Assembly: GCA_038250675.1 (NCBI GenBank) | Contig: JBBSCB010000012.1 | Coordinates: forward strand, 8,165 to 72,164 | Length of the DNA: 64,000 bases | Source: Gemmatimonadales bacterium | GTDB lineage: Bacteria > Gemmatimonadota > Gemmatimonadetes > Gemmatimonadales > GWC2-71-9 | Direction: 5' to 3' | Shown here: positions 28,981-64,000 of the stretch, in pieces | Layout of the letters: each line of letters starts with the position of its first letter | How positions within the stretch are numbered: position 1 is the first letter of the stretch | Position numbers and translations under genes: made by a program | The notes under the pieces: generated by a model | The model's input: only the letters and a program-made list of their open reading frames with translations | Databases searched by the model: none | Told to the model about the DNA's origin: nothing

Positions 28981-31656
28981 TCATCGCGGGGCCACGTCCG
29001 CCACCCAGATGTCCGCCTGATGTTCACCCGCCACGAAATAGAACCGCTTGCCATCGGTATCGGAGACGCCGCGGACCGTCCGCGCCTCGCCATGATCGAA
29101 GCTCACCACCTTGCGAAGCGCCCCGTTCCGGAGATCCACCGCCCAGTAGGCCGGGTCGCCGGTCGTGTCGCGGGAGAAGACGTACAGCGTCCGGCCGTCG
29201 GGCCCCATCCGGAGCCAGTTGGGCCGGAACCAGGGTGGAGGCTGGAAGAGACTCGCCGGTGCACCGCCGCCCGAGGGGATAGCGACAAACGCGTTGGTAC
29301 TGTCTTCGGTGACGCTGGCGTAGGCCAGGCGATCGTGGGTGACACCGCTCGTGATGCCCGAGCCGATTCGCGCTGGTTCCCCCCAGGGTGCAGAGCGCGA
29401 GGCCCGACGGATTTCCAGCAGGTCCGGGCTCGCTCCCTCTCCCCGGCTGAACGCGAGCGTGTTGTTGTCCGGTCCCCAGGCCGCGTACCAGTCGCTCAGC
29501 GTGTCGCGGGTGACCTGGGTCAGCCCGGTGCCGTCGGCGTTGATGACAAAGACATCCCGGTTGCCGGTGCGGAACGAGTGAAAGGCGATCTGGCTGCCGT
29601 CGGGAGACCAGTCGGCAGCGAGGTCGTCCGAAGGATCGTGCGTGAGCTGCCTCGGCGTGCCGCCCTCGGACGGCACGACGAAGAGATCGGCGTTGCCATT
29701 GAGGTCGGAGTCGTAGACCAGCCACTTGCCGTCCGGGGAGAGCCGCACCACTTCAGTGGCCTGGTTGCCCCGGGTGATCGGCACGGCGGAGCTGGCGCTA
29801 GCACTGCCTGTCGGAGGCAGCCGGACCATCCAGATGTTGAGATCGCGGCTGTACTTGGCATAGGCCAGGTGCTTCCCGTCCCGGGAGAGCGCGATGGTGT
29901 GCGCATCGAGCCCGGTGGTGATCCGGCGGGGGGCGCCGTCGGGCCGGCCGGCGCGGCCGATGGCCTGGCGATAGATGTCCCGGCCCCCACCACTGCTCGA
30001 GACGTAGAGCAGCCCGCTCCCATCGGGCAGCCAGACCGGCGAGACGTTGAGGGTGGTGGAGTCGCTCACCATGGTCGGCGCCCCGCCGGCGGCGGGGAGC
30101 ACGAAGACCGTGCTCGCGGCCAGGTTGCCGAACGAGCGCTGACCATACACGAAGTCCCGGTTGCCCCGTACCCCGGCCAGCCAGCGGCCGTCCGGCGACC
30201 ACGCCAGTGAGTGGACGGCACCGACCATTGCCAGCAGCGTCACCCCGCCGCCGTCGGCTCCCATGACCATGACGCTGTCACCCTGCTCGAAGGCGAGATG
30301 AGTTCCGTCAGGAGACCATTTGGGCGCGAGCGGGACACCGCCGTCATACGACGTGCGATAGAGCCGCCGGACATCGCCCCCGGTCGGAGGCATGACGGCG
30401 ATGCTGGCGCCGCCGGCCTCGTAGGAGACAAAGGCCAGCCGTCGGCCATCGGGTGACCAGTCCGGCGATGCCTGGGAGCCGGGCAGGCTGTCGGTGATGC
30501 TGATCGCGCGTCCCCCGTCGGTGGGTTGCAGGAAGATTTCCGCCCCGCCCGCGGCGTCCGCCACATAGGCCAGGAACTGGCCGTCAGGCGAGAGGGCGGG
30601 CAGCGTCTCCCTCCCCGGAGCGCTGGTGAGCCGGCTGGTCTTCGTCAGGCTCAGCTGCGTGGCGCCTGCGCCTCGCCGGGTCAGCAGCAGGATACCGCCC
30701 AGTGCGACGATCACGCCGAGTGCAATGAGGAGGCTTCGATTCCGTCCCACCGGTACCGATGGTGCCACGGCCGCGACGGGCATCGTGTGAGTCGGCGTCA
30801 TCCCGCCGCTCGGTGTCGCCAGCGGCTCCAGGTGCTGCAGCATCTCCTCGGCGGTCTGCCACCGGTCCGCCGGCCGCTTCTCCAGCGCCTTCATGATCAC
30901 GCCTGCCAGTGCCGGCGAGAGCGACGGCCGGTGGTTGGCCAGCGGCTCCGGCAGCTGCATCACGTGCGCCGCGAGGACCTGTTGCGGCGAGGCGCCGGTG
31001 AACGGGGGTCGACCCGCGAGCAGCTCGTACCCCATGACGCCGAGGGCGTAGATATCCACCCGGTGGTCGAGATGGGGATCCGCGCTCGCCTGTTCCGGCG
31101 CCATGTACGCCGGCGTCCCGAGGGCCACGCCGAGGGTGGTAAGCCGATTCTGCCCACTCGCTTCGTTTACGGCCTTGGCCACGCCGAAATCCATGACGAG
31201 GGCGTGGCGGCCGGAGAGCATGACGTTCTCCGGCTTGATGTCGCGATGCACCACGCCCCGGCTGTGCGCGTGACTCAGTGCGTCGGCGATCTCGATCAGC
31301 AGCCGCACCGCCTCGTGGACCGGGAGCTCGCCCTCCCGCGTGAGCCGCTCGCGCAGTGACTCGCCCTCCACGTACGGCATGACGTAGTAGAGAAACCCCT
31401 CGGCGCTGCCGGAATCGAAGACGCCGAGAATGTGCGGGTGCTGCAGCCGGGCCGCGATTTCGATCTCCTGGGTGAACCGGTCGGGACCGAGCGCCGCGGT
31501 GAGATCGGGGCGCAGCACCTTGATGGCCACCCGGCGGCGATGCTTCAGGTCCTCGGCGAGATAGACCGTCGCCATGCCGCCGGCGCCGAGTTCGCGCTCG
31601 ATGCGGTAGCGGTCGGCGAGTGACGCGGCGAGGCGCGTATCAGCGCCCATTCGCAT
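28981..31656 (-). CDS. Ser/Thr kinase - TM - TolB/PD40 beta-propeller (K1)
   Basis: GAGGMATVY, HRDIKPEN, DFG; many WSPDG repeats; start 31656 or 31650 overlaps the K2 stop. Confidence 0.93.
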   Translation of the reverse strand: MRMGADTRLAASLADRYRIERELGAGGMATVYLAEDLKHRRRVAIKVLRPDLTAALGPDRFTQEIEIAARLQHPHILGVFDSGSAEGFLYYVMPYVEGESLRERLTREGELPVHEAVRLLIEIADALSHAHSRGVVHRDIKPENVMLSGRHALVMDFGVAKAVNEASGQNRLTTLGVALGTPAYMAPEQASADPHLDHRVDIYALGVMGYELLAGRPPFTGASPQQVLAAHVMQLPEPLANHRPSLSPALAGVIMKALEKRPADRWQTAEEMLQHLEPLATPSGGMTPTHTMPVAAVAPSVPVGRNRSLLIALGVIVALGGILLLTRRGAGATQLSLTKTSRLTSAPGRETLPALSPDGQFLAYVADAAGGAEIFLQPTDGGRAISITDSLPGSQASPDWSPDGRRLAFVSYEAGGASIAVMPPTGGDVRRLYRTSYDGGVPLAPKWSPDGTHLAFEQGDSVMVMGADGGGVTLLAMVGAVHSLAWSPDGRWLAGVRGNRDFVYGQRSFGNLAASTVFVLPAAGGAPTMVSDSTTLNVSPVWLPDGSGLLYVSSSGGGRDIYRQAIGRAGRPDGAPRRITTGLDAHTIALSRDGKHLAYAKYSRDLNIWMVRLPPTGSASASSAVPITRGNQATEVVRLSPDGKWLVYDSDLNGNADLFVVPSEGGTPRQLTHDPSDDLAADWSPDGSQIAFHSFRTGNRDVFVINADGTGLTQVTRDTLSDWYAAWGPDNNTLAFSRGEGASPDLLEIRRASRSAPWGEPARIGSGITSGVTHDRLAYASVTEDSTNAFVAIPSGGGAPASLFQPPPWFRPNWLRMGPDGRTLYVFSRDTTGDPAYWAVDLRNGALRKVVSFDHGEARTVRGVSDTDGKRFYFVAGEHQADIWVADVAPR

Positions 31657-34315
31657 TCGCCATCAACGACCGCAGCTCGTTTCGCCACTGGTACACCACG
31701 AATAGCTCCGGATGCGTCGTGCTCTGCACCATGAGGAACCGGCTGCCGTCGGGGGAGACGTCGTAGTTGGCGTGCGGCGCCCGCGCAAAGCTGTAGTTAT
31801 CGGCAAAGAGGTCGGTCCGCCCGGTCACCGTGAACCCCGACGCGGTCGAGACCGACGCCGCGACCAGGTGGCGGCCGTCCCGGTAGAAGAGCCGCCGGCC
31901 GTCCCGCGCCCAGACCGGCTCGGACCCGCCGCCCACCGACACCTGCACCCTGCCGCCCGGCCCCGGGTACGGCTGCACCACGACCTCCGACCGGCCCGAT
32001 GCGTCGGTGACGTAGGCGATCCACTTCCCGTCCGGCGAGAAGCGCGGCTGGGCCTCGATGAACTGGGAGGCGGCCACCGGCCGCGACGCGGTGTCGCCGG
32101 CGACCGCCCCGACCCGCACATCCGCCTGGGTCCCGCCGCCGTCATCCACCTGGTAGACGACCGCGCTGCCATCAGGCGAGAGCACCCCCTCGTAGTAGTC
32201 GTGCGCGTCGGAGGCCAGGAGCGGCGCCGCCGGCGTGCTCAGGTCGGCCGGCTGCCACCAGATGGCGGTGCGCCGGCCCAGGTCGGTGCGGTAGAGGACG
32301 TGGGTGCCATCCGGCGACCATTCCGGCCGGTCGCTGACCCTCCCCGCGTTGGTGAGCCGGGAGAGCGTGGCGGAGGTGAAGTCGTAGAGCCAGACGTCGG
32401 ACCGGTCCCCGCTGCCCACCGCCACGGCGAACCGCCGGCCGTCGGGGGAGAGGCGGGGATAGGCATAGGCCTGCGCATCGTTCAGCACCGGCTCGAAGCG
32501 GTGCTGCAGGTTCACCCATCCGACCTGGCCGGCGGCGCCGGACGGCTGGTAGATCAGCGTCCCGGTCGCCGAGAGCGATGCCTTGCTCGCACCGGCAAAG
32601 GTCGTGGCCACGCTCGGTCCGAGCACGACTGGGGTGCCGGTGATCCGTCCCCGGCGGAGGTCAATGCTGACGCCCATGAGCGCACCCGAGGGCGCGACGT
32701 AGACCAGCGTCCCGTCAATGACGCCAAGCGGGTCCAGCGCGGCGATGCCGAACCGCGTCACCTTCCCCGATTCGAGCGACACCAGACCGATTCGGCTGAG
32801 CCCCACGCCGCCCGTCGGCGTGATCCCGACCATCGCCATCGCGCCGTTCGGCAGCGTCCGCGGCTGGTCGAAATAGAGCTCGCCGAGCGCCGAATCCGGC
32901 CGCGCGACCATCCGGGCCGCGCCGCCGCCGGCCGGCAGCGCCCCCAGCCCCTGGGTGGAGCCGACCAGGATCTGGCCGGACGCCGACCACGCTGTCCCCA
33001 GCGGCCCGGAGCCGGTCGGGCCCACCATCACCGGGGTGCCGCCGGTGACGGCGATCTTCCAGACCGTGCTCCCGACGAGGTAGGCGAGAGACCGCCCGTC
33101 AGGCGAGAAGGCGGGCTGCTGCGCCCCGTCAGTGCCGGCCACCGGCACCGCCGCGGCGTCGCTCATTCGCCGGACATACAGCGACGAGATGCCGCTGGCG
33201 CCTACGACGACGTACGCAATCGTGCTCCCGTCCGGCGACACCGCCACGTTGTTCCCCTCGGCGGCGTTGGTCACCAGCAGCGTGGAGGGCGGCAGGTCCA
33301 GGGTGAATCGCACCGCACCCGGCACCGGCGTCCGCTCCGCGGTCCGCCACTGGAACGCGGCAAGCACGAGTGCGGCGACCAGCGCCGCCGCGAGTCCCAG
33401 GACCAGCGGATGCCGGACCACTGCCCGGTGACCACCCGCCGTGCCGAACGCCGACCCCGGCCCCGCGGACGCCGTCCTGAATCCCGGATCCGCGAGCGCG
33501 TCGGCGAACTCCCTGGCGGTGGCAAAGCGGTCGGCGGGCACCTTCTCCAGCGCCCGGGCGAGGGCGGCGGCCACATTGGGCGTCACGCTCTTCCGGAGCG
33601 TCGTGATCGGGGCCGCGTTTTCCGTCACGATCTTCATGATGATCTGCTGGGCGGAGCTTCCGGTGTGCGGCGGGTTCCCCGCCAGCATCTCGTACAACAC
33701 GCTGGCCAGCGAGTAGATGTCGCTCCGGCCGGTGATCTCCTTGTCGGCCGTCGCCTGCTCGGGACTCATATAGTGCGGCGTCCCGAGCGAGAGACCGGTC
33801 TCGGTCATCCGGCCGCCGGCCGCGGCACTGAGTGCCAATGCGATGCCGAAGTCCATTACCATCGCCCGCCCGTCGTGCAGCAGGATGTTTTCCGGCTTGA
33901 TGTCGCGGTGGATCACGCCGTGGCGGTGCGCGTAGTCGAGCGCGTCGGCGACCTCGCGGGTGATGCGCACCGCTTCGTCGATGCCGAACTGGGTTTCACG
34001 GTTGAGCTTTTCGCGGATCGTCTCGCCCTCGATGTAGGGCATCACATAATAGAGCTGACCGTCGGCGCTGCCCGAGTCGAACAGTGGCAGAATGTGCGGA
34101 TGACTCAATGCGGCGGTGGTCTTGATCTCCTGCACGAACCGCTCGGCGCCGAGGACGGCGGCGAGTTCGGGCTTGAGGACCTTGAGGGCGACCTGGCGAT
34201 CGTGCTTGAGATCGTAGGCGAGGTAGACCGTGGCCATGCCGCCCTGGCCCAGCTCGCGCTCAATGCGGTAGCGGTCGGCGAGTGCCGCTTGGACGCGGTC
34301 GAGGCCGGCGCTCAT
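31640..34315 (-). CDS. Ser/Thr kinase - TM - beta-propeller (K2)
   Basis: MSAGLDR start overlaps the K3 stop (ATGA); kinase motifs; SPDG repeats. Confidence 0.93.
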   Translation of the reverse strand: MSAGLDRVQAALADRYRIERELGQGGMATVYLAYDLKHDRQVALKVLKPELAAVLGAERFVQEIKTTAALSHPHILPLFDSGSADGQLYYVMPYIEGETIREKLNRETQFGIDEAVRITREVADALDYAHRHGVIHRDIKPENILLHDGRAMVMDFGIALALSAAAGGRMTETGLSLGTPHYMSPEQATADKEITGRSDIYSLASVLYEMLAGNPPHTGSSAQQIIMKIVTENAAPITTLRKSVTPNVAAALARALEKVPADRFATAREFADALADPGFRTASAGPGSAFGTAGGHRAVVRHPLVLGLAAALVAALVLAAFQWRTAERTPVPGAVRFTLDLPPSTLLVTNAAEGNNVAVSPDGSTIAYVVVGASGISSLYVRRMSDAAAVPVAGTDGAQQPAFSPDGRSLAYLVGSTVWKIAVTGGTPVMVGPTGSGPLGTAWSASGQILVGSTQGLGALPAGGGAARMVARPDSALGELYFDQPRTLPNGAMAMVGITPTGGVGLSRIGLVSLESGKVTRFGIAALDPLGVIDGTLVYVAPSGALMGVSIDLRRGRITGTPVVLGPSVATTFAGASKASLSATGTLIYQPSGAAGQVGWVNLQHRFEPVLNDAQAYAYPRLSPDGRRFAVAVGSGDRSDVWLYDFTSATLSRLTNAGRVSDRPEWSPDGTHVLYRTDLGRRTAIWWQPADLSTPAAPLLASDAHDYYEGVLSPDGSAVVYQVDDGGGTQADVRVGAVAGDTASRPVAASQFIEAQPRFSPDGKWIAYVTDASGRSEVVVQPYPGPGGRVQVSVGGGSEPVWARDGRRLFYRDGRHLVAASVSTASGFTVTGRTDLFADNYSFARAPHANYDVSPDGSRFLMVQSTTHPELFVVYQWRNELRSLMANANGR

Positions 34316-36844
34316 CGCATCCCCGAGAAGGTGAACAGCAGCGAGAACCACTTCCGGGTCTCGTACACGTATGACCTTGGATCGTCCGCCAGCGATAGCC
34401 GCGCCGAGCTGAAGACCGTCGTGGGCGCATCGATCGTCAGCAGCGGCGTACGGCGACCGCTGGTAACGTCCACCCGGTCGACCCGTGGGCGGGACGGAGT
34501 CCCGGTCTGCACCCAGAGCGCTGCCCCGTCGGGACTCCACCGGATGACACTGTCGGCCCCGACGCCGCTGACCGGCGTCGGAGCGCCACCGCCGGCGGGA
34601 TATAGCGCGTGTTGCCCGTCCCGTCGGACAAGCACGGCGGCACCGTCGGGCCGGGGCAGTCCCGCACCGATGCCATCCGGCGTCATCGGCGTGAGCGTGG
34701 AGGCGTTCAGCGGGCTGCGATAGCATCGGGCGCCTCCACTCGCGGGGGTTCCGCACACGAAGAGCGAGCCGTCATCGGGGACAAATGCGACGGACGCGAC
34801 CGACTGGAGCCCAGCCCAGGTGAGCCGCCGCGCGTCCCCCGCGCCAGCGGGATAGAGCCAGAACTGCGGCGGCGTCGAGACGATCAGGCCGAGCACCCAG
34901 CGAGCGTCCGGGCTGATGCCGGTGGCCGTGCCCGGTCCCAACCGCACTGCGGGCGATCCGTCGGTCTTCCGAAGCATGACGGAATACTGGGCACCGCCGG
35001 CGATGTCGGTGAACGCGACCCAGTGGCCGTCGGCGGAGACGACCGGCAGAATCGAACTGTCGAGCCACGAGAGATCCCGGTCCGCCTCCGCTCCCGCCGA
35101 GCGCGCCACGAGCCCGTGGTTCTGATCGTCGCGGGTCACGAGCCACCGGCCCCCGGTCCTGACATCGTGCAGCGTCAGTGATCCCGGACTCGGCAGGACC
35201 AGCCGCGCGGTGCCGTCAAGGTCGGCTTCATGCACCTGCAACGCATCTCCGGTGCCCGATGCGGAGAACAGGAGCGATCGACCGTCGGGGCGCCAGGCCA
35301 GTCCCTCCAACCCGGAAAACTCCGGGGTCATCCGGCGCGCCTTGCCCGCGCGATCCACCACCATGGCCCAGCCCCGGTCGTCCCCCGCGAAGGTGTGCGT
35401 GAAGAAGGCGACCCGATCTCCTTGCGGTGACACCCGTGGATCCGAGAGGTAGCCACCAGCCAGGCTCCGGTACAGCACCGTGCCGGCGGGGTACTCGAGC
35501 TGGACGTACTCACCGGACGGGCGGATGATCGCGAGCTGCGCTCCGTCGGGCGACCAGTCGGCCTCGTGGACGTTCTCCATGATCTCCCGGGGAGCTCCGC
35601 CACCCAGCGGCATGCGCGCGAGGGTGCCGGTGAACACCCGGTGGTTGTCGTGGCGAGCGTGAGTGAGCAACGCCAGCTCGCCGGTGCTCGAGACGGCGAG
35701 GAGGTTGGCCGAGTCGGGGCCAAGAGCTTCCGGTTCGAGATAGTCGGGGCGAATGACGTAGAGCCGCGGCGTCGAGCCCTGCGCGCTGGCGCTGTAGACG
35801 ATGGTCTGTCCGTCGGGCGCCCAGCGCGCATTGATGATCGCCTCCTGCCGAAAACTGTGCTGCGTGACCGAGATGCGCCCGAGGTCGCCGGCGTCGGCCC
35901 GGTGCCGCAGCAACAGCCAGCCGCTCGCTGCGAGTGACACCGCAGCGACCGCGAGCGTGAGCCGGCTGCGCCAGTCGGCCAGCCAGGTCGGACCCCGATT
36001 GCGGGGCCGGATCGGACCCGGCCCGCTGAGCGCCGAACCGAACTCCGCCGCAGTGGCAAACCGGTCGGCCGGCAGCTTTTCCAGCGCGGTGAGCACCGCC
36101 TCCTCCACCGCGGGCGGGACGCTCTTCCGCTGCCCGATCAGCCCCGCCGGCTCCGCGGTCATCACCTTGGCCACGATGGCCTGCGCGGTCGGGCCAGTGA
36201 AGGGCGGCTCGCCCACCAGCATCTCGTAGGTCATGGCGCCGAGCGCATAGACATCGGAGCGCGCCGTGATCTCCCGCTCGCCCATGGCCTGCTCGGGCGA
36301 CATGTAGTGCGGTGTGCCGAGCGACATCCCGGTCTCGGTCATGCGCGAGCCGCCACCGGCGCTCGACACCGCCAGCGCAATGCCGAAGTCCGCGACCAGC
36401 GCGGACCCGTCGTGCAGCATCACGTTTTCCGGCTTGATGTCGCGGTGGATCACGCCCCGGCGATGGGCATAGTCCAGCGCGCCGGCCACCTCGCTGGCGA
36501 TCCGGACCGCGTCGGCAATGGGGAGCTGCTTGTCCCGGTTCAGCCGATCGCGCAACGACTCGCCCTCCACGTAGGGCATGACGTAGTAGGCCGTGCCCTG
36601 CACCTCGCCGCTGTCGATCAATCCCAGGATGTGCGGGTGCTGGAGGTTGGCGATCGTCTGGATCTCGCGCAGGAAGCGCTCGGCGCCGATGACGGCGGCG
36701 AGCTCCGGCCGGAGCACCTTGATGGCCACCTTGCGATGATGCTTCAGGTCCTCGGCCAGATAGACCGTGGCCATGCCACCGGCGCCCAGCTCGCGCTCGA
36801 TGAGGTACCGGTCGGCGAGGGCCTCAGCGAGGCGCGTCGAGACG

Positions 36845-36852
<8 letters not shown>
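34312..36852 (-). CDS. Ser/Thr kinase - TM - beta-propeller (K3)
   Basis: MSDVSTRL start overlaps the K4 end; kinase motifs; ARWAPDG, ADWSPDG, DLSWLD. Confidence 0.93.
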
Positions 36853-39544
<2,692 letters not shown>

Positions 39545-39565
39545 CGATTCGCCGCGTCCGTCATC

Positions 39566-44814: not shown

Positions 44815-45243
44815 TCACGCCAACGGGTGGCACCACCGCAATTCGGGGAATCGCGCGAAGTCACGGTCCGTGGTCACGAACTCGCAGCCGGATTCGATCG
44901 CCAGAGCCGCGAGCCAGGCATCGGGAACAAGATTTCCTTTCGCGCCAGCTTCCCGACAGAGCCGCTGGAAGATCTCCCAGTGGCGGAGTCCAGGAGCGAT
45001 CATCACCGCGTTCGGTTGGGTGCGAAATGCATTCGCAAAGCCCAGCGCCGCATCGATGGGTGTCGGCGGATGGAAGATGCGCGGGTGGGTCGCAATGCGG
45101 AGAAAGCTGGCGAGCACCTGATCGGATACGGCGTAGGCTTCATCTGACCGAACCAATGCGTCGAGCCACGCCCGATGCGCCGTATGCTCAGGGGCGCCTT
45201 CCCTGAAGGCGTGGACGAGGATGTTGACGTCAACGAGTCGCAG
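44815..45243 (-). CDS. vapC: VapC-family PIN-domain toxin (probable CTG start, 142 aa)
   Basis: LVDVNILVHAF…FLRIATHPRIF…GNLVPDAWLAALAIE…TTDRDFARF; GAGGA 8 nt upstream of CTG; in-frame stop just further upstream. Confidence 0.88.
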   Translation of the reverse strand: MRLVDVNILVHAFREGAPEHTAHRAWLDALVRSDEAYAVSDQVLASFLRIATHPRIFHPPTPIDAALGFANAFRTQPNAVMIAPGLRHWEIFQRLCREAGAKGNLVPDAWLAALAIESGCEFVTTDRDFARFPELRWCHPLA

Positions 45244-45541
45244 TGGGGCTATCCTCGTCCATCAGGTCGAGAAGTGCCGCGCTGTCGTCGAGATCGACCC
45301 CCGGAGCGAGTACACCACCGGCAAAGGTCGGCAGTGGCGTTCTCCCGCCCTCGGCCGCGCCCGGGCGCGTGGACGTCTGGGCCTCGAGTGCTTCCAAGCC
45401 ACGACGGAGGATGTCTGACTTGGTCGTGCCGAGGCGCGCGGTGAGCCGTTCCAATCGCTCGCGGTCTGGTGGCTGCAGGTAGACCTGCACCGGCTCAGCC
45501 ACGCGGGACGGCCGTTTAGGCGGTTCATGACGATATGTCAT
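45230..45541 (-). CDS. Ribbon-helix-helix (CopG-like) antitoxin, VapB-type
   Basis: VQVYL…RLERLTARLGTTKSDILRRGLEAL; C-terminal PGVDLDDSAALLDLM; overlaps vapC. Confidence 0.8.
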   Translation of the reverse strand: MTYRHEPPKRPSRVAEPVQVYLQPPDRERLERLTARLGTTKSDILRRGLEALEAQTSTRPGAAEGGRTPLPTFAGGVLAPGVDLDDSAALLDLMDEDSPTATR

Positions 45542-45576
45542 GAAATCATGATATGATTGGGAGCGTCCGCTGTCAA
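45524..45576 (-). promoter_or_regulatory. Sigma70 promoter (leaderless) and palindromic operator of vapBC
   Basis: TTGACA (45576-45571) -17nt- TATCAT (45553-45548), 6 nt before ATG; palindrome TTCATGAC-5-GTCATGAA at 45524-45544. Confidence 0.8.
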
Positions 45577-45624
45577 GTCGGCCTGTTACGGGGCGCAACC
45601 ATGATGCTCACCGCTCCAGCCCCG

Positions 45625-46622: not shown

Positions 46623-46651
46623 ATCATAATCCGCTTATGATGTAAGTTCAA
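46623..46651 (-). promoter_or_regulatory. Sigma70 promoter (leaderless) with palindromic operator
   Basis: TTGAAC (46651-46646) -17nt- TATGAT (46628-46623), 6 nt before ATG 46616; palindrome ATCATAA-5-TTATGAT at 46623-46641. Confidence 0.75.
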
Positions 46652-46695
46652 GTGTTAGAGTGCTGTACGATGATCATCGTGCGCTGACGCCGTGA

Positions 46696-52304: not shown

Positions 52305-52365
52305 GCTCGCGCTCGATGCGGTAGCGGTCGGCCAGCGCCGTGGTTAGGCAATCACTCGTCGTCAC
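52305..52365 (-). pseudogene. Orphan kinase 5' stub (~20 codons)
   Basis: GTG overlaps the K9 stop (GTGA); VTTSDCLTTALADRYRIERE, then homology ends. Confidence 0.75.
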
Positions 52366-55686: not shown

Positions 55687-55704
55687 CGCCGTGACGGGCG
55701 TGCG

Positions 55705-57594
55705 TCAGCGCACGTGCACCGCCACGTGAACCAGCGGCGGCACCTGGGCCGACGGTGCTGAGGGCTGGGGATATCCGAACGCCAGGGAATATTCGCCCGC
55801 AGCCGGGGCGCGGTACTCGAAGTCGTAGATCTCGCCGGGATCGAAGGTCAGCGTCGCCGGGTGGGTCACGGCCTGGGCGGCGGGCAGCGGGTACCCGTCC
55901 TTGGCGATCGCTCGCCACCGGACCGGCTGGCCGCGATGGAGCAGGGTTACATACGTGGGACTGTCGCCGGCAAGGTTGAAGAACCGAAAGCGATACCGCG
56001 TGCCGGCGTGCAGGGTCATCGGCGCCGGGTGGGCGCTGCCGTTCAGCAGGACGGTTGGCGGCGGCACCAGGAAGGACAGTATCGCGCCCGCAGTGCCGAA
56101 GAAGAAGGTGCGGTCGCGTTCGGGATCGTAGGTCTGCCCCGGCTCCAGGACGATGATGGGACCGTAGAGGCCGCCGCCCATCTGCTGCGACTCGTTGAAG
56201 TGCGAGTGGTACATGAACGAGCCGGCGCGCCTCGGCGTCCAGCGCACCGTGAGCGAGTCGTGCGGCGCGATCGGCGGATAGAGCTCGGCACCGGCCCCGC
56301 TCCACCCCGGCACGCCGTCGGGATAGCTGCTTTCCAGCTCGATCCCGTGCCAGTGGATGGCGGCGTGCTGGTCCGAGGCGTTGACCAGCGTGACTTCGAC
56401 CCGCTTGCCGCGCTCGAGTACCAGGATGGGGCCCGGAATCGGCAACGCCGCCGAGTCCGCCGGCCTGGTGTCCGAGATCAGATAGGCGAGCCCGGGTTGG
56501 GTGCCGTAGACGCCGGCTTTCTCTCGCTGCTCGATCCGGATGCGCCGGCTCGGTTCCGCCGCGACGACCGCGGGCCCCCGCGGCGTGATGGTAATTCCGG
56601 TCACCAGGCCGTACATCTGATGCGGGCGGTCCGAGGGATGGCGCAGCTTCGCCATCGTGTCGAGCACGCCGTGCCGGGTATCCAGGGTGACGAACGCCGA
56701 GACGTGCGTGGCATAGTGGCAGTGAAAGATCCAATTGCCCGGCCGGTCCGCCTGCCATGCCAGCTCCACCGCCGAAAACGGCTCGACCATCTCCGTCACC
56801 GCCATCCGGCGCTGCGCCGGCGAGTAGATCGTATCGATGCCGCCGCCGCTGCGCGAATCCACCCGGAAATAGAACCCGTGCAGGTGCATCGGGTGATCGC
56901 CTTCTGTGAGATTCACGACCCGCCAGTGCACCGAATCGCCCTGGGCATAGGTGAGCCGCTCGGTGTGCGGCCAGCCGAGGCCGTTGATCGTCATCACGCC
57001 GACGCCGACGCCGGTCGGGCTCGTGGAATCGCCAGTGAAGTACCAGCTGATGGCGAGGATCCGGTCCGGCGGCGGGTTCGGGCCGTCCACCACGATCACG
57101 CCGTTGAGTTGCGATTCGCCGGCGGCGCGTCCCTTCGCCGGATCGATACGGGAGTGCGCCGAGTAGATGTAGGTGCCGGGTGCGCTCGCGCGGAAGTCGA
57201 ATGGGATCGTGGCGCCCGCTCCGACGATCAGACTGTCGGACAACGCCCGCGACCGGCCCAGCCCGATCACCGTGAGGGGAAGGCCGAGGGTGTTGTGCAG
57301 TGTGCCACGCACATCGGTCCCCACCGGCACGCGGATCAGCGGCCCCGGGGTGGTGCCGTCGTGGCCGGACTCGGCAAAGGCGGCCACGCTGTCGAGCGAC
57401 CGACCGCCGGGGCCCTCCGGATGCCAGGTGCCGGGCCGGATCTCGAGGGCGAGCGACAGCACACCGCTGCTGAGGGTGCCGGCGGGATGCGTGTTGTCGT
57501 TTGGGGCGACATCCACGGTGCGGCGCGGCGGCGCGGCGGAGGTGAGACCGAGACACCATGCTGCGCCCAGCGCGATCACTACGATCCGTTTCAT
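55705..57594 (-). CDS. Secreted multicopper oxidase domain protein
   Basis: Signal peptide MKRIVVIALG…; HPMHLHGF, WIFHCHYATH, IHWHG, FMYHSH. Confidence 0.88.
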   Translation of the reverse strand: MKRIVVIALGAAWCLGLTSAAPPRRTVDVAPNDNTHPAGTLSSGVLSLALEIRPGTWHPEGPGGRSLDSVAAFAESGHDGTTPGPLIRVPVGTDVRGTLHNTLGLPLTVIGLGRSRALSDSLIVGAGATIPFDFRASAPGTYIYSAHSRIDPAKGRAAGESQLNGVIVVDGPNPPPDRILAISWYFTGDSTSPTGVGVGVMTINGLGWPHTERLTYAQGDSVHWRVVNLTEGDHPMHLHGFYFRVDSRSGGGIDTIYSPAQRRMAVTEMVEPFSAVELAWQADRPGNWIFHCHYATHVSAFVTLDTRHGVLDTMAKLRHPSDRPHQMYGLVTGITITPRGPAVVAAEPSRRIRIEQREKAGVYGTQPGLAYLISDTRPADSAALPIPGPILVLERGKRVEVTLVNASDQHAAIHWHGIELESSYPDGVPGWSGAGAELYPPIAPHDSLTVRWTPRRAGSFMYHSHFNESQQMGGGLYGPIIVLEPGQTYDPERDRTFFFGTAGAILSFLVPPPTVLLNGSAHPAPMTLHAGTRYRFRFFNLAGDSPTYVTLLHRGQPVRWRAIAKDGYPLPAAQAVTHPATLTFDPGEIYDFEYRAPAAGEYSLAFGYPQPSAPSAQVPPLVHVAVHVR

Positions 57595-57701: not shown

Positions 57702-57822
57702 CGACCTGGCGGTCGTGCCTGAGATCGTGGGCGAGATAAACCGTGGCCATGCCGCCGGCGCCAAGCTCGCGCTCGATTCGGTACCGGTCGGCGAGTGCCG
57801 CGGTCAGGCGCTCGAGGCTCAC
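57702..57822 (-). pseudogene. Orphan kinase 5' stub (~40 codons), in frame with the downstream multicopper oxidase
   Basis: GTGA overlap with the K10 stop; MSLERLTAALADRYRIERELGAGGMATVYLAHDLRHDRQV, ending before the catalytic Lys. Confidence 0.8.
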
Positions 57823-60509
57823 CGGGTTCCCCCCGCCCTGGTCTTCATCTTCGTGGCCAGGTCGGCGAGGAAGTTCTCGATGTAGACGGCTTCGGGAATC
57901 GGCCCGGCATCCGGCTCGCGGATCATCAGGAAGCGGCGGTCATCCGGGGCCACGTTGTACTGCGGCCGATTGTTCGCGGCAGCGTACCCATCCAGCGAGA
58001 AGAGCGGGCGCGGGATGCCCGGGCTGAAGGCCGCTCCGGGAGCCACCGGCACGCTGACCAGCTTGCCGCCGCTCTTGAAGAAGAGTTCCCGGCCGCTGTG
58101 CGCCCAGCGCGGCTCGGTCCCGCCGCCTTGCGAGACCTGCATGCGCACCTTCATGTCGGGAAAGGAACCGACATACACCTCCGAGGCACCCGAGATGTCG
58201 GAGGTGAACGCCAGCCATCGCGCGTCAGGAGAGAGGGCGATCTGGGTGGTGAAGCTGCCGTCATCGAGGATGGTGCGGAGCGTGGTGTCGCCCCGGAGCC
58301 GCCGGGCGAGGACGACGCCGTACGAGCCGGACTTGTCCCGACGGATGACCTGCCACTGGCCGTCCCGCGAGTATTCCGCCTCCCAGATCCCACCATCGAC
58401 GTGGAGCGTCCGCCGTGGGGGCGAACTGCCATCGGCGGGGCTCTCGTACAGATCATTTCCCGACCCCGCCGAGCCCGACTTCGCGACACCTAGCGTGGTC
58501 ACGAAGGAAAAGGCGCGTCCGTCCGGCGTCCATGCCGCCCGCCAGGTGCCATCGTCACCGACCGAGACCTTTCTCCGGGAGCCGTCGGCCCGGCGGATCC
58601 AGAGCTGGGTGAAGGCGCCTCGGACACTCACCGCCAGGGTACGGCCATCCGGGGCGAGCGCCGGATACTCGAACGCCGCCTGCCAATCGGCGGCAAATGG
58701 CTCCGTCGTACCGTCCCGAGCGACCCACACGAGTCGTGAGTCGTTCAGGTTGCGAGTGCCGACGGAGTACACGGCGTTCCCCGAGCGCGAAAGCGCAAAC
58801 CGTGACGGTGCCACACCCGAGATCACCGGGATGGCCCCCGAGGTGATCCGCATCCGGCCGAGATCGAACCCCGCCGCGTACAGGCCGCCGTCACGCGTGG
58901 TATACAGGAGGTAGCCGTTCGGGGCGTACCAGGCCCCGCTGGCGTTGTCCACCAGCAGCTGGGTGCTGTCGGTCCGGAAGTCGTAGGCATAGATCGCCGA
59001 CCCGCTGGCGCAGTTCCCGGGACAGCCGGTGAAGAGAACGCCGTGGCTGCCGGGAAGTGCGGCGAGCGCGGTCGGGTCGATCCGACCGCTGGAGGAGGGC
59101 TTCCGCGCGATGGAGGTGGGACCGCCATCGCCGGAGACTCGACGCAGCGAGTTGGTTTGGCCGACGTAGACGATGGTGTTGTCGTCCAGCCAGTCTCCAA
59201 CCAGGTAGGTGGCGTTGGCGCTGTCCGCCAGCGGCACCGTCCCGCCGCCTGACACCGGGACCTTCCGGAGCCGGCCGCCGGCATCGAAGTACGCGATCCA
59301 CTTGCCATCGGGCGAATAGAAGGGAGACATGGCGCCCTCGGTTCCGGCGATCGGCGTGGCGTCCACCTGATCGCGGAGCTTGAGCATCAGCTGCGACGTT
59401 GCACCGACCGAATCCGAGAAGACGATGCTCGAGCCGTCCGGTGCAATGGCAACCTGCGACTGCACCCGGGCGGTGCCCGGCGCCAGGAAGTCCCCCACGC
59501 CATGGTGCCACAACACCACCCGCTGGTAGGTCGGTCCCACGGCGGGCCTCGGCCTCGTCCACCCCCACAGGGCGGCGAGCGCCAGCAGGGCAGCCGCAAC
59601 CGGCCAGGCGAATCGCACCGGCGAGGGTGCCTTCGGCGGGCGGGGCGCCGCGCGAGTCGTTCTCCCGCTCGCGGCCGCCTCGCCGGCCAGCGCGGCGGCA
59701 AACTCCCTGGCCGTCGCATAGCGGTCAGCGGGCAGTTTCTCCAGTGCCCGAAGCACCGCGACCTCGACCGACTCCGGCACCGCCTTTCGCTGGATGCTGA
59801 TCGCCCGCGGTTCGTCGGTCACCAGCCGGGCGACGATGGCCTGCACACTCGGCCCCGTGAACGGCGGCTCACCCACCAGCATCTCGTAGGTCACGACGCC
59901 GAGGGCGTAGATGTCGCTCCGCGCGTCGATCGAGCGTTCACCCATGGCCTGCTCGGGACTCATGTACTGCGGTGTGCCCAGCGAGAGCCCGGTCTGGGTC
60001 ATCCGCGCGCCGGCGGCGGTCTGCACGGCGAGCGCGATGCCGAAATCCGCCACCAGCGCATGTCCGCCCTGCAGCAGGATGTTCTCCGGCTTGATGTCGC
60101 GGTGCACCACGCCGAGTCCGTGGGCGTATCCGAGGGCGTCGGCCACCTCCCGGGCAATAAGCACCGCGGCGTCGATAGGAAGCTGGCGCTCCCGCACGAG
60201 GCGGGCCCGGAGCGTCTCGCCGGTGACGAGCGGCATCACGTAGTAGAGCAGCCCGTCGGCCTCGCCGGAATCGAGCAACGGCAGGATGTGCGGGTGCTGG
60301 AGCCGGGCGGTGGTGCGGATCTCGGAGAGGAACCGTTCCCCGCCCAGGGCGGCGCCAAGGTCGGGGTGGAGGACCTTGATGGCGACGTCGCGATCGTGCT
60401 TGAGGTCGTGGGCCAGGTAGACGGTCGCCATCCCGCCCTGGCCCAGCTCACGCTCGATGCGATACCGGTCAGCCAGCGCCGCGGTGAGGCGGTTGGGCGT
60501 CGGAGGCAT
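57819..60509 (-). CDS. Ser/Thr kinase - TM - beta-propeller (K10)
   Basis: Kinase motifs intact; SPDG repeats; start ATG 60509 or GTG 60515. Confidence 0.93.
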   Translation of the reverse strand: MPPTPNRLTAALADRYRIERELGQGGMATVYLAHDLKHDRDVAIKVLHPDLGAALGGERFLSEIRTTARLQHPHILPLLDSGEADGLLYYVMPLVTGETLRARLVRERQLPIDAAVLIAREVADALGYAHGLGVVHRDIKPENILLQGGHALVADFGIALAVQTAAGARMTQTGLSLGTPQYMSPEQAMGERSIDARSDIYALGVVTYEMLVGEPPFTGPSVQAIVARLVTDEPRAISIQRKAVPESVEVAVLRALEKLPADRYATAREFAAALAGEAAASGRTTRAAPRPPKAPSPVRFAWPVAAALLALAALWGWTRPRPAVGPTYQRVVLWHHGVGDFLAPGTARVQSQVAIAPDGSSIVFSDSVGATSQLMLKLRDQVDATPIAGTEGAMSPFYSPDGKWIAYFDAGGRLRKVPVSGGGTVPLADSANATYLVGDWLDDNTIVYVGQTNSLRRVSGDGGPTSIARKPSSSGRIDPTALAALPGSHGVLFTGCPGNCASGSAIYAYDFRTDSTQLLVDNASGAWYAPNGYLLYTTRDGGLYAAGFDLGRMRITSGAIPVISGVAPSRFALSRSGNAVYSVGTRNLNDSRLVWVARDGTTEPFAADWQAAFEYPALAPDGRTLAVSVRGAFTQLWIRRADGSRRKVSVGDDGTWRAAWTPDGRAFSFVTTLGVAKSGSAGSGNDLYESPADGSSPPRRTLHVDGGIWEAEYSRDGQWQVIRRDKSGSYGVVLARRLRGDTTLRTILDDGSFTTQIALSPDARWLAFTSDISGASEVYVGSFPDMKVRMQVSQGGGTEPRWAHSGRELFFKSGGKLVSVPVAPGAAFSPGIPRPLFSLDGYAAANNRPQYNVAPDDRRFLMIREPDAGPIPEAVYIENFLADLATKMKTRAGGTR

Positions 60510-60578
60510 GGTCACCTGGTACGGGGATGTAGCTGGGACGTGGTAATTAAGGATAGGGGCAACGGAACGGACGGGGAA

Positions 60579-60683
60579 GGACGGCTGGGACGGCTGGGAC
60601 GGCTGGGACGGCTGGGACGGCTGGGACGGCTGGGACGGCTGGGACGGCTGGGACGGCTGGGACGGCTGGGACGGCTGGGACGG
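60579..60683 (+). repeat. Perfect 9-bp tandem repeat (GGACGGCTG), 11 copies plus a partial
   Basis: Read directly from the sequence. Confidence 0.97.
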
Positions 60684-60706
60684 ACGGTGCGTCGCAAGGC
60701 CACCAT

Positions 60707-61122: not shown

Positions 61123-61174
61123 CCGTGGGGCATGGCGCTCCGTGCGGGACCGTCCGACGGCGCCGATCGTCCCG

Positions 61175-61284
61175 TCGATTCGACGCATCGACCGCGGCTT
61201 TCATGTGTCTGACCCAGGTACCACGAGACACCGAGCCGGTAGAGCACCTCGGAGGGCGAGAGAAAGAGCGGCTCGACCCCCTGG
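61175..61284 (-). pseudogene. Collapsed 3' remnant of a K6-like kinase gene
   Basis: QGVEPLFLSPSEVLYRLGVSWYL (matches 42183-42253) joined to WVRHMKAAVDASNR (matches 41968-42010). Confidence 0.8.
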
Positions 61285-61307
61285 CGTCACGGTATGCACC
61301 GGGTCCA

Positions 61308-64000
61308 TCAATGCACCCCCAGCGGCTGATACTTGTCCAGCCACGCAAGCGCCTCCTGAATCATCCGCACCCGCGGAACGAAGTGGCTGCCCTCCTCGAT
61401 CACGTGGCGCTTGTCCGCCTCCGGCGTGCCCAGCAGCCGAAACATCGGGAGCTGGGACGTGGCGATCAGGAAATAGAAATCGTAGCGGCCGTTGACCATC
61501 AGTGTGGGAATCCGGATGCGGGGGAGAAAGTTGACCGGATCCACCTCGGGTTGCGCCGCCGCGAAGGAGAGACCGGCGACCTGGAGAATGCTGACCTTGA
61601 TCCGCGGCTCGATCGCGGGCATCAGCCCGCCCATCTCGCCGCCCCAGCTCACACCGTAGTAGGCGAGCTGCGCCGTCGTGACCTCCGGGATCGTTTCCAG
61701 ATAATCCACCGCGCGCCGCAGGTCCTTGCCCCACATCACGACATGGTCACGATAGAATCGGCTCGAGTCGCTCGCATCGCTTTGCAGCGAGTCGCGGCGC
61801 TGGTAGGTCCCCTTGTAGACAGGGTACACGACCGCCCGCCCGCTCTTCAGGATGAAATCGAACAACGAGGTTTGGGCGTCGGGCGGCACCGGAAGCGTGA
61901 TCGCGCTGCCGGGCGGAAAGAAGACGACGGCGGGCGCCGGGTGGGGCGCTCGTCGCGGCAGATAGAGATAAAGCAGGAGACTGTCCCCAGCGTACGCGGC
62001 ATCGAGTTGGACCAGCCGGCGGGTCCACTCGCCCTCGTCCACCGTCTCGAGGGTCCGCGCGTGAACCGGTTTCCGATCGTATTCGTACATCTGGCGATAG
62101 GCCGCGAACACCGCGTCCTCCACCGGCTTCGCGTGCACGAGGTCGCGCAGGCGCTCGGTCACCGGCGCCGAGGCCCGCGCCAGGTTCGGCTCCGACGCCG
62201 CGTAGCGCACCAGGCGAATGCCGTTGAGCGCCGAGCGATCGAACGGGTCCTGCGCGTAAGAGTCGTTGAAGCGGTAGGGCGGATCCTCCCACCCGCCGCC
62301 CAGGATGAAGTGCTGGGTACCACTCGAGTTCAGGCACCACTCGCGGACGTTCCCGGCCATGTCGTACGTCCCGAACGCGCTGATGGACCGCGTGCTGCCG
62401 ACCGGCGCCGCACCCCGCCCGGAGAAATTGGCGGCCGGCACCATCCACGCGCTGTTCCGGATGCTGGCGGCGCGGCTCCAGTGCACGACGGTCGGGAGCT
62501 GCTTGCCACGGAAGCGCGCGTAGGCCATCGCCTCGTACCAGCTCACCCCGCCGACCGGCTCGTTCTCGCGGCCGCTCGGCGGCTCACCCGCTTCCCACGT
62601 GGCCGGGCCGGTGCGGCCGGTGCGATCGGTCATCAGCGCCATCGCGTCCTTCCAGGGGATCACCCGGCCGTCCTTCGACATCGCCTCGGTCCACAGCTCC
62701 GGCCGGCGATACCCGCCGCTATCCACGAAGCTCCGGAACTCGCGATTGGTGATCTCGTAGCGATCCATCAGGTAATCACCGAGCGCGATCGGAGCGGTGT
62801 TGTCGAATTCGGGATAGTCGGCTTGCAGCAAGCCGCCGCCCACGCGCACCATCTCGGCCGGAATGGCCGAGTCCCGGTCGAGCGTGATCGCTGAATCCTG
62901 AAACGGCATTCCAACCAGCTCCAGCGTCCGGTATCCCGGGCTCTCGATACGAAGGCGATTGGCATCGAGCAATCGGCCGCCCGGCCCGCTGAGTGCGACG
63001 AGCGCACTGTCGAGTGGCGTCCGCCCGAGCAGTTGCCAGGCTGAGTCGGGAGCGCCATACGCCTTGCGCCAGACACTGGCGCCCTCGGGCACTGTATGGA
63101 TCGGGTAGCGGCGGGCAAACCGCGACAGCAGCGCCTCGAAGAGTGAGTCGCCGGGTGCGCGCTGCTCGACCGTTTTCGCGAGTGCGTACGCCCCCTCCCA
63201 GTCGGCCGAATCCGCCAGCGCCTGCAGGCGGGGGATCGCGGTGTCGCGCACCCATGTGCGGTTCCGCCACCGGGCGATCGGGCCGGCCCAGGCCCACGCG
63301 GCAAGCAGGACCACGGCGGCCGCGGCCGCGACCCACCAGCGCCGCTGCCGAGGGGCAGCCGGTGCGACCGCCGGTTCGAGTGTGCGAATCAGCGATTCCG
63401 CCGTCTGCCAGCGATCCGCCGGATCCTTTGCCAGGCAGCGCATGATGGCCGCGGCGAGCGGCGGCGGCACGGCGGGATCGAGCGACGAAAGCGACGCGGG
63501 GGTCCGCGTCACGTGGCCGGCGATGATCGCCTGCGGTGTCGTGCCGGCGAAGGGGGTGTGTCCGCTCAGCATCTCGTAGCCGACCACGCCGGTGGCGTAC
63601 AGATCGGTCCGGCCGTCGATCTCGGCCTGCCCGAGCGCCTGCTCCGGCGCCATGTACGCCGGCGTGCCGATGGCAAGCCCGATGGTGGTGAGCGCCGTCG
63701 CGGCGGCCGGGCTCGCCGCGATCGCCTTGGCCACGCCAAAGTCCACCACGAGCGCATGCCGGCCGGACAGCATGATGTTCTCCGGCTTGATGTCGCGATG
63801 CACGATGCCATGCTGGTGAGCATGGGCCAGCGCATCCAGCACCTCACGAAGGAGCGGCATCGCCTCCGCCGCCGGCAGCGTACCGTCGCGCGTAAGGCGT
63901 GCGCGCAGACTCTCGCCCTCGACGAACGGCATCACGTAATACAGGAGTCCGGGACTCGCGCCATCCTCGGACGGCACCTCGCCGGAATCGATGAGCGTGA
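61308..64000 (-). CDS. Ser/Thr kinase - TM - FGE-sulfatase - alpha/beta hydrolase (K11), 5' end outside the window
   Basis: HRDIKPEN, DFG; VSWYEAMAYARF, DMAGNVREW; GVSWG, NGRYD, GSH. Confidence 0.92.
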   Translation of the reverse strand, partial: TLIDSGEVPSEDGASPGLLYYVMPFVEGESLRARLTRDGTLPAAEAMPLLREVLDALAHAHQHGIVHRDIKPENIMLSGRHALVVDFGVAKAIAASPAAATALTTIGLAIGTPAYMAPEQALGQAEIDGRTDLYATGVVGYEMLSGHTPFAGTTPQAIIAGHVTRTPASLSSLDPAVPPPLAAAIMRCLAKDPADRWQTAESLIRTLEPAVAPAAPRQRRWWVAAAAAVVLLAAWAWAGPIARWRNRTWVRDTAIPRLQALADSADWEGAYALAKTVEQRAPGDSLFEALLSRFARRYPIHTVPEGASVWRKAYGAPDSAWQLLGRTPLDSALVALSGPGGRLLDANRLRIESPGYRTLELVGMPFQDSAITLDRDSAIPAEMVRVGGGLLQADYPEFDNTAPIALGDYLMDRYEITNREFRSFVDSGGYRRPELWTEAMSKDGRVIPWKDAMALMTDRTGRTGPATWEAGEPPSGRENEPVGGVSWYEAMAYARFRGKQLPTVVHWSRAASIRNSAWMVPAANFSGRGAAPVGSTRSISAFGTYDMAGNVREWCLNSSGTQHFILGGGWEDPPYRFNDSYAQDPFDRSALNGIRLVRYAASEPNLARASAPVTERLRDLVHAKPVEDAVFAAYRQMYEYDRKPVHARTLETVDEGEWTRRLVQLDAAYAGDSLLLYLYLPRRAPHPAPAVVFFPPGSAITLPVPPDAQTSLFDFILKSGRAVVYPVYKGTYQRRDSLQSDASDSSRFYRDHVVMWGKDLRRAVDYLETIPEVTTAQLAYYGVSWGGEMGGLMPAIEPRIKVSILQVAGLSFAAAQPEVDPVNFLPRIRIPTLMVNGRYDFYFLIATSQLPMFRLLGTPEADKRHVIEEGSHFVPRVRMIQEALAWLDKYQPLGVH

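Follow-up and report, generated by a model that had tools for sequence, protein, structure and literature searches.

The DNA analysed here, hereafter the window, is a stretch of 64,000 nucleotides (nt) from a Gemmatimonadales bacterium, corresponding to positions 8165–72164 of the 81,986-bp contig C12 (JBBSCB010000012.1) of an assembly denoted G000. Between positions 28981 and 64000 the window is occupied by a succession of Ser/Thr kinase genes, named K1 to K11 and all encoded on the minus strand. The locus is a real tandem array, operon-like in layout, of receptor Ser/Thr kinases with a single membrane pass, and its cassettes have probably been reshuffled by recombination in a lineage with a greatly expanded kinome. 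The G000 assembly comprises 3.2 Mb in 92 contigs, is 91% complete and has a G+C content of ~69%; all the genomes compared below are metagenome-assembled genomes (MAGs).

Gene map and architecture of the array

The segment 28981–64000 contains 12 long open reading frames (ORFs) on the minus strand, 11 of which match the Pfam Pkinase family above its gathering score. These genes and the features lying among them are the following (TM, predicted transmembrane helix; HMM, hidden Markov model).

K1, 28981..31656, minus strand: kinase, TM and PD40/TolB-like propeller (Pfam Pkinase 177 bits, PD40 159 bits)
K2, 31640..34315, minus strand: kinase, TM and PD40 sensor; the ATG at 34315 overlaps the stop codon of K3 (ATGA)
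K3, 34312..36852, minus strand: kinase, TM and PD40 sensor
K4, 36845..39544, minus strand: kinase, TM and PD40 sensor
K5, 39566..41968, minus strand: kinase, TM and TPR sensor (TolB_N/TPR cluster)
K6, 41965..44697, minus strand: kinase, TM and diverged propeller-class sensor
PIN (44815..45156) and ribbon-helix-helix (RHH; 45230..45598) pair, minus strand: toxin-antitoxin-like insert (Pfam PIN E 2.8e-9, RHH_1 E 3.6e-4)
K7, 46696..49359, minus strand: kinase, TM and PD40 sensor; the GTG at 49359 overlaps the stop codon of K8; alternative ATG at 49329
K8, 49356..52214, minus strand: kinase, TM and FGE-sulfatase-like plus dienelactone-hydrolase-like (DLH) sensor (Pfam)
K9, 52362..54728, minus strand: kinase, TM and TolB_N plus TPR; alternative start at 54803
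Multicopper oxidase, 55705..57594, minus strand: cargo gene with its own Met and a signal-peptide-like N-terminus (Pfam Cu-oxidase_2, Cu-oxidase_3)
Kinase 5' stub of ~40 codons, 57703..57822, minus strand: HMM positions 1–32 (40 bits), ending just after the Gly loop
K10, 57819..60515, minus strand: kinase, TM and PD40 sensor (Pfam)
K11, 61308..64000, minus strand: kinase, TM and FGE-like sensor; runs past the window end, with its start 238 bases beyond

The array continues past the window. A kinase HMM built from G000 itself, with which the kinases and stubs of C12 were mapped, adds K12, a stub of 132 amino acids (aa), K13 and a 14th gene of which the 3' part of the kinase domain is present, the remainder being cut off by the contig end. 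The C12 array consists of 13 full co-oriented genes and two 5' stubs on one strand, spanning 44.8 kb. An earlier note, made from the letters of the window alone, had described 11 co-oriented kinases running off the window end, a description that agrees with the Pfam matches and understates the number of genes.

When the start codon nearest the conserved N-terminus is taken, start and stop codons overlap by 4 nt at five junctions (K3/K2, K6/K5, K8/K7, K10/stub and K12/K11) and by 8–17 nt at two others (K2/K1 and K4/K3). This tight coupling suggests that the array genes are co-transcribed. Counts of promoter-like sites (2–3, with 1.3–1.4 expected from shuffling) and of terminator-like sites (9 and 5, with 6.4 and 5.7 expected) are not above chance. 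Two sigma-70-like matches, again a number not above chance, are the only ones on the array gene strand (45548–45576 and 46623–46651, minus strand); both fall in the island of small ORFs around the PIN/RHH pair, one upstream of or inside the RHH ORF and the other upstream of ORF 46113–46616, and one of the two fits 11 of 12 positions. In the same island ORF 45625–46116 yields only a sub-threshold Pfam match to DUF6036. Three small ORFs elsewhere in the array (54976–55449, 60512–60865 and 60926–61348) have no match in Pfam or PADLOC. The 40-codon stub, whose GTG overlaps the stop codon of K10, lies between K10 and the multicopper oxidase gene.

The Pkinase (PF00069) scores of the 11 window kinases range from 114 to 177 bits against a cut-off of 31.7, and the Gly loop, VAIK Lys, alphaC Glu, HRD, DFG and APE motifs are intact in all 14 C12 kinases and in 63 of the 64 full kinases found genome-wide. 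The sole kinase devoid of HRD and Gly-loop signatures, at positions 50350–51984 (minus strand) of contig C20, adjoins an intact kinase and is likely to encode a pseudokinase. One hydrophobic 19-mer (Kyte-Doolittle mean 1.62–3.02) is located 8–33 aa past the kinase domain in 14 of 14 C12 kinases. For the part that follows, Pfam identifies PD40 repeats in K1–K4, K7 and K10, TPR in K5, TolB_N and TPR in K9, FGE-sulfatase and DLH in K8, and FGE only in K11, whose sensor is 44% identical to that of K8 over 650 aa. The K6 sensor, which has no Pfam match, aligns end to end (~560 aa) with PD40-bearing paralogues (BLASTP E 2.6e-21) and weakly, at 25 bits, with the TolB propeller model TIGR02800. The equivalog cut-off of that model, 343 bits, is reached by neither K6 nor K1 (196 bits), and on these scores the propeller sensors are relatives of PD40 repeats rather than TolB proteins. 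A kinase followed by one TM and by a C-terminal domain of a periplasmic-type family (PD40, TolB_N) is the layout of a single-pass receptor, with the topology predicted from sequence, and the putative extracytoplasmic sensor measures 500–680 aa in each array gene.

The array kinases belong to neither of two receptor-kinase equivalogs. Against the NCBIfam model of PknB/Stk1 PASTA kinases (NF033483) they score 275–309 bits, below the 450 required, over model positions 3–275 only and without PASTA domains; against the PknD model (NF009651) they score 133–174 bits, below 839, with the kinase domain alone matching and no NHL domains. C12 has no match to FHA or PP2C_2, and all seven FHA and five PP2C_2 matches of G000 lie on other contigs. 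Two of the five PP2C_2 matches are situated beside or inside other kinase arrays, at 35368–35913 of contig C1 (array C1 30–39 kb) and at 14794–15387 of contig C6 (C6 15.5 kb). In all these respects the gene-level reading in the earlier note stands, from the intact HRD/DFG motifs with a TM, the overlap coupling and the three sensor classes (propeller, TolB_N/TPR, and FGE with hydrolase) to the interspersed stubs, toxin-antitoxin-like pair and cargo and the lack of a phosphatase or FHA gene in the array.

The C12 array is one of several in G000. The assembly contains 75 Pkinase matches in its 3.2 Mb, including 64 ORFs with a near-complete domain; the stop-to-stop ORFs of these full kinases account for 5.1% of the assembly, and contigs C42, C49, C52 and C54 are composed almost wholly of kinase genes. 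Kinase matches were found in 31 of 31 sampled genomes of the order, at 14 to more than 58 per genome. Near-complete assemblies of the order have arrays too: contig C4 of a genome in four contigs (G021) harbours 6–8 co-oriented kinases within 31 kb, contig C1 of a genome in ten contigs (G020) harbours five within 16 kb, and of 22 metagenome loci of at least 8 kb retrieved with K7, nine contain at least two kinases, seven at least three and four contain 4–5 co-oriented ones. Because arrays recur in these 4- and 10-contig genomes and in metagenome loci, they are regarded as a real feature of the lineage, and they explain why metagenome assemblies break at its kinase genes. Several G000 contigs end inside kinase domains, and contigs C54 and C42 share 99 exact end bases and are therefore neighbours. 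Many contig ends of G000 (C1/C36, C6/C34, C12/C17, C55/C56 and others) coincide with another contig end over exactly 141 bases; C12 is linked to C17 in this manner through its left end, and such overlaps would permit further scaffolding.

Separate histories of kinase and sensor halves

The 13 array kinase domains are 44–87% identical in protein and 57–83% in DNA, with exact runs of 13–44 nt, and are therefore old paralogues. Divergence of this kind is what would be found if the locus were a static set of ancient tandem duplicates, in which the kinases are held by purifying selection, the sensors drift and no meaningful recombination takes place. The distribution of sensors on the kinase tree speaks partly for and partly against such an origin. 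Mapped onto a tree of 64 kinases, the five sensor classes require 10 changes or more, where the possible minimum is 4 and the mean after shuffling is 20.6; sensor class clusters on the tree and is therefore partly conserved, as static duplication would have it, yet it has been repeatedly changed. The starred branches of this tree force at least four changes of sensor class for each of the two big classes.

The propeller class allows the two halves to be compared within one type of sensor. Among its 22 members in G000 the median identity is 67% for the kinases and 30% for the sensors, with a correlation of r = 0.13 over 231 pairs. In approximately unbiased (AU) tests the kinase alignment rejects three clades of the sensor tree (p 0.026, 0.003 and 1.5e-6) and the sensor alignment rejects three clades of the kinase tree (p 3e-5, 0.003 and 1.7e-4). 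Kinase and sensor halves have different phylogenies, and six rejections of congruence out of six argue against a static history.

Individual pairs illustrate the discordance. K1 and its nearest kinase paralogue, C42_7711 on contig C42, are 82% identical over 326 aa, which include the kinase and the juxtamembrane linker, and 89% identical within the kinase domain; the similarity stops just before the TM, with none beyond, and the sensors are PD40 in K1 and TolB_N/TPR in C42_7711. One kinase lineage is here joined to two unrelated sensor folds, a combination at odds with static duplication. The K2 kinase groups with those of K4 and K12 (82–87% aa identity), and their sensors are 34–36% identical. 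The sensor of K3 groups with that of K7 with a support of 100 in the Shimodaira–Hasegawa-like approximate likelihood ratio test, whereas the K3 kinase groups with that of C42_13415, the sensors of these two being 27% identical. In K10 and C42_5090 the kinases are 89% and the sensors 36% identical. A small sensor class, termed C3, is probably a diverged propeller, and the contrast between K10 and C42_10632 is on that account not counted as a change of fold.

A relative dating of the two halves by synonymous sites was attempted and set aside. Pooled four-fold identity is 0.57 for kinases and 0.40 for sensors, which at face value would make the kinase younger than the sensor; distant kinase pairs already reach 0.49–0.50, so the difference mostly reflects position-specific codon choice and is not used as evidence.

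Cassette content and a crossover within K7

Two genomes of the same genus, G003 and G001, were compared, to which the G000 backbone is 67–81% identical in DNA over the 60 kb tested (one 405-nt piece of G001 reaches 85%). Contig C50 of G003, colinear over its entire 13,995 bp with K5 to K8, is 89–94% identical. It matches K5 at 89% over 39735–41917, K7 at 93.8% over 46677–49303, the 5' end of K7 together with the 3' part of K8 at 92.9%, and K8, as an orthologue, at 93%. Against this background the gene content is not the same. Between its K7 and K8 orthologues G003 carries an additional TPR-kinase gene of 819 aa, Kx, which has no close copy in G000 (best match 80%, kinase domain only). Between K5 and K7 it has two other kinase genes, one apparently frameshifted, in place of K6 and the PIN/RHH stretch of G000; this 2-kb stretch has no counterpart on contig C50, and the best match of K6 in four same-genus genomes is 68%. 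The G003 gene adjoining the K7 orthologue is 90.5% identical to a gene on contig C49 of G000, a different contig from that of K7. In a third MAG, L017, an orthologue of K8 (87% identity) adjoins 2-oxoacid:ferredoxin oxidoreductase genes and has no kinase in the 6 kb upstream. Cassette content differs between close relatives, and the variation in order and content that the earlier note had proposed is borne out. These differences in the neighbours of K7 and K8 in two relatives are a further difficulty for static duplication.

The difference of one cassette between K7 and K8 could be traced to a breakpoint by a three-way alignment of G000 K7, its G003 orthologue and Kx.

Crossover interval, 49264..49292, minus strand: stretch of K7 coding for the Gly loop, in which all three sequences are nearly identical

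To the left of 49300, K7 of G000 follows the G003 orthologue at 144 of 154 informative sites and Kx at 10; to the right of 49345 it follows Kx at 59 of 60 and the orthologue at one. A switch at this point implies a crossover between the 5' segments of two tandem kinases that removed or added one unit of 2403 nt. A change in copy number with the breakpoint within a shared repeat was observed this once, between two MAG assemblies, and the site pattern argues for past crossing-over within conserved kinase sequence, which static duplication does not foresee. Homology blocks shared with G003 also end at the kinase in two other genes: those of K5 and of K9, whose orthologue on contig C11 of G003 is 86.7% identical from the stop codon onwards, both terminate where the kinase HMM match begins, at its first codon. 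An insert of ~18 codons in the N-lobe (48996–49095 in K7) is present in K6, K7 and the G003 orthologue of K7 and missing from Kx and most paralogues.

Recent conversion-like patches are also present in kinase domains elsewhere in G000. Of the 12 repeat pairs of at least 200 nt and at least 88% identity in the assembly, seven lie within kinase domains. Tandem neighbours on C54 and C42 are 86–98% identical over ~360 nt of the kinase domain and 18–64% elsewhere, a sharply bounded patch inside otherwise diverged genes that static duplication would leave unexplained, and the 132-aa stub matches the 5' part of K12, the gene beside it, at 88% identity over 267 nt. No conversion tract like the C54/C42 patch was detected among the 11 genes of the window. 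Exact runs of at least 20 nt between paralogues (n = 928) fall preferentially in three places, with 349 at the HRD loop, 93 in the APE region and 80 at the Gly loop. The proposal of the earlier note that the ~800-bp kinase sequence is itself the recombination site fares well as regards the crossover at the Gly loop and the seven repeat pairs in kinase domains, and less well as regards most of the 800 bp, which at 57–83% identity is a poor present-day substrate; the breakpoints that could be resolved mark the 5' edge of the kinase and the boundary between kinase and TM, and are not spread along the whole domain.

Estimates by the method of Nei and Gojobori (NG86) place synonymous divergence (dS) between G000 and G003 at 0.12–0.33 for K5, K7, K8 and the contig C49 gene C49_6308, at 0.36–0.46 for K9 and at 0.93–0.96 for three backbone genes. 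Beside the K9 orthologue, a block of non-kinase genes on contig C11 of G003 (11609–16001, locus L010) is ~85% identical to G000 sequence on contigs C3 (138824–141767) and C58, where other backbone genes are 72–78% identical; its dS is 0.31–0.59, and that of a further gene 0.71. Divergence between the two genomes is therefore a mosaic in which low values are not confined to kinases, and the idea of an exchange between species specific to kinases is weakened accordingly. The ratio of nonsynonymous to synonymous divergence (dN/dS) in orthologues is 0.08–0.21 for kinase halves and 0.13–0.36 for sensor halves, values that point to purifying selection on both. Ratios below 0.4 in both halves, like synonymous sites close to their baseline, are compatible with static duplication, which all the same appears unlikely once the six AU tests, the K1/C42_7711 pair, the mapped crossover and the C54/C42 patch are taken together.

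The possibility has also been considered that the array, or its difference from G003, is an artefact of assembly or binning, produced by chimeric joining of repeated kinase stretches or by wrongly assigned contigs. Grounds for suspicion exist. All compared genomes are MAGs and some G000 contigs terminate within kinase domains; contig C50 of G003 is much closer to G000 than the 72–78% typical of the G003 backbone, as a mis-binned contig would be, and being a short MAG contig it may indeed belong to a closer relative. Among 32 matches listed of more than 12,000, no piece from sequencing run X1 spans the K7/K8 junction (48772–50085), and no RNA run figures among those listed. Logan contigs break in kinase domains, and pieces from runs X4 and X5 over 49252–49862 start at the crossover and fit both forms; a metagenome scan with K7 returned a best full-length relative of 52% identity and no independent copy of the junction. 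On the other hand, each array gene is unique, and no exact run exceeds 44 nt, far short of the 141-nt end overlaps that indicate the assembly k-mer. The unique sensor parts of K5 to K10 are each covered 12–16x by contigs of run X1 with 0–7 differences, and co-oriented sets of 5–8 kinases are present in the 4- and 10-contig genomes of the order, with arrays on four metagenome contigs as well. Mis-binning would change the owner of contig C50, not the cassette difference between two arrays 92–94% identical, although the case for exchange between species would then fall away. An artefactual origin is, on balance, very unlikely.

The surroundings of the array include further genes. Upstream of it, on the opposite strand, lies one more receptor kinase gene.

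Extra receptor kinase, 22639..25269, plus strand: kinase with TPR sensor (Pfam and kinase HMM)

Flanking genes encode a hybrid histidine kinase with the order DUF4118-GAF-PAS-HisKA-HATPase-REC (16977–20000, plus strand), an RCC1-repeat propeller protein (20109–21452, minus strand) and a protein with a GIY-YIG nuclease domain (25559–26758, minus strand). Orthologues of 16977–20000 and 26810–28642 are adjacent in G003, where ~6.8 kb including the plus-strand kinase are absent. At the beginning of the window (20–7303, plus strand, running off its start) a protein of 2427 aa combines a glucoamylase-like domain with two GH94 supersandwich domains and a GH94 catalytic domain, an architecture that looks like that of a cyclic beta-1,2-glucan synthase or phosphorylase.

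Interpretation and comparison with known systems

An anti-phage defence island, with PD-T4-6-like or Stk2-like kinases clustered with toxin-antitoxin genes, has a very slim chance of being the right description: PADLOC PD-T4-6 models do match K1, K5 and K8 (E 1e-84 to 1e-92), a PIN/RHH pair is present and content varies between relatives, but these matches, from a library without a cut-off, are confined to generic kinase residues ~8–295 that also match PknB, PknD and other kinase models, none of seven small ORFs tested matches PADLOC, the large predicted extracytoplasmic sensors are unlike cytoplasmic defence kinases, and 75 copies of a gene common to the whole order do not suit such an island.

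A tandem array of receptor kinases reshuffled by recombination is the explanation favoured here. Each gene would encode a cytoplasmic kinase of Hanks type at the N-terminus, followed by one TM helix and an extracytoplasmic sensor, with propeller, TolB_N-TPR or FGE-hydrolase sensors each binding a different periplasmic or envelope ligand; by analogy with PknB and PknD, binding may lead to kinase dimerization and autophosphorylation. The ~64 kinases might converge on a few common partners, PP2C phosphatases and FHA-type readers whose genes lie in other parts of the genome. Conserved kinase segments would be the places where unequal homologous recombination and gene conversion add, delete and re-pair units of kinase plus sensor, and rarer breaks at the kinase/TM boundary would swap sensors.

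Several observations weigh against this explanation, or against its more dynamic versions. The evidence comes from MAGs only, and a single crossover has been resolved with both parental forms visible. The sharp drop in identity past the kinase domain could also reflect unequal constraint, and the edges of the K5 and K9 blocks fit the proposed model and do not prove it. The HRD loop holds more of the exact runs between paralogues (349 of 928) than any other site, and the Gly loop, where the crossover lies, far fewer (80 of 928); with array kinases at 57–83% identity and runs of at most 44 nt, recombination among the 13 copies should now be rare. The closest paralogue kinases have a pooled four-fold identity of 0.58, barely over the 0.49–0.50 of distant pairs; as synonymous sites are near this baseline, most of the duplications and swaps are old. 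Lastly, the suggestion in the earlier note of a diversifying locus is not upheld, given that dN/dS of orthologous sensors (NG86) reveals no diversifying selection at whole-domain resolution. The age of the paralogues and the purifying dN/dS count against a currently active system, and most of the events visible inside G000 appear to be old.

A bolder proposal goes beyond reshuffling in the past and can be advanced only tentatively, its truth being rather doubtful: that of a reassorting receptor repertoire, in which arrays acquire, lose and pass on cassettes, from one array to another and between congeneric species, through homologous recombination anchored in the conserved 5' segment of the kinase. 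The low dS of the cassettes relative to the backbone would agree with recent exchange between species; the similarly low values of the non-kinase block next to K9 indicate that such exchange may not be specific to kinases. Were this proposal true, a single Gemmatimonadales genus would comprise populations that differ in their sets of envelope sensors, the prokaryotic equivalent of the receptor-like kinase (RLK) and nucleotide-binding leucine-rich-repeat (NLR) gene clusters of plants. Cassette exchange would also offer a tractable system in which to investigate how extracytoplasmic sensing diversifies and how dozens of near-identical kinase domains avoid cross-talk with few phosphatases.

The Mycobacterium tuberculosis kinases PknD and PknB are built of an N-terminal Hanks kinase, a single TM and an extracytoplasmic sensor, which in PknD is a beta-propeller, and their likely mode of action is ligand-dependent dimerization and autophosphorylation. 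The array kinases share this domain order; they lie below both equivalog cut-offs and have neither PASTA nor NHL domains. Plant RLK and NLR clusters combine constant signalling modules and variable recognition modules in tandem, and evolve by unequal crossing-over and conversion tracts. The putative functional likeness to them is one of analogy only: in plants the domains come in the opposite order, and the two kinds of cluster arose independently; moreover, the Gemmatimonadales arrays bear no sign of diversifying selection (sensor dN/dS 0.13–0.36).

Among bacteria the nearest parallel is found in the planctomycetote 'Ca. Uabimicrobium amorphum', in which expanded Hanks-type kinases, mostly membrane-bound, join a cytoplasmic kinase to periplasmic WD40 or TPR arrays, and species-specific kinase clades have been attributed to duplication and/or recombination (PMC11032199). 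Both lineages display a large, lineage-specific expansion of membrane kinases with repeat sensors. They belong to different phyla, and the sensors of Gemmatimonadales are of PD40/TolB-type, TolB_N plus TPR and FGE plus hydrolase types instead of WD40. In the parts of that paper available to us, 'tandem' denotes repeats within proteins, and long operon-like arrays, mapped crossovers and tests of incongruence do not appear. The myxobacterial kinome also includes many paralogues, some of them adjacent duplicates taken as products of tandem duplication (Perez et al. 2008, as cited in PMC11032199). Compared with that account, the Gemmatimonadales genomes are small, 3–4 Mb and not 9–15 Mb, kinase density is high (75 matches in 3.2 Mb) and arrays reach 13–14 co-oriented genes with 4-nt overlaps. 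A further paper (PMC2877116) names PD40 as one of the domains commonly tethered to kinases.

A literature search, covering neither subscription papers nor supplements, found no paper on kinase arrays in Gemmatimonadota. Expanded kinase families whose periplasmic sensors consist of repeats have been described before, and the interest of the present locus lies in recombination mechanics that are directly visible, in the setting of a compact genome (3 Mb) of soil or sediment origin in a phylum that has received little study. Whereas bacterial Hanks-kinase expansions are usually presented as gene counts, here gene order, the histories of the modules and one mapped crossover show how such a kinome grows and is reshuffled.

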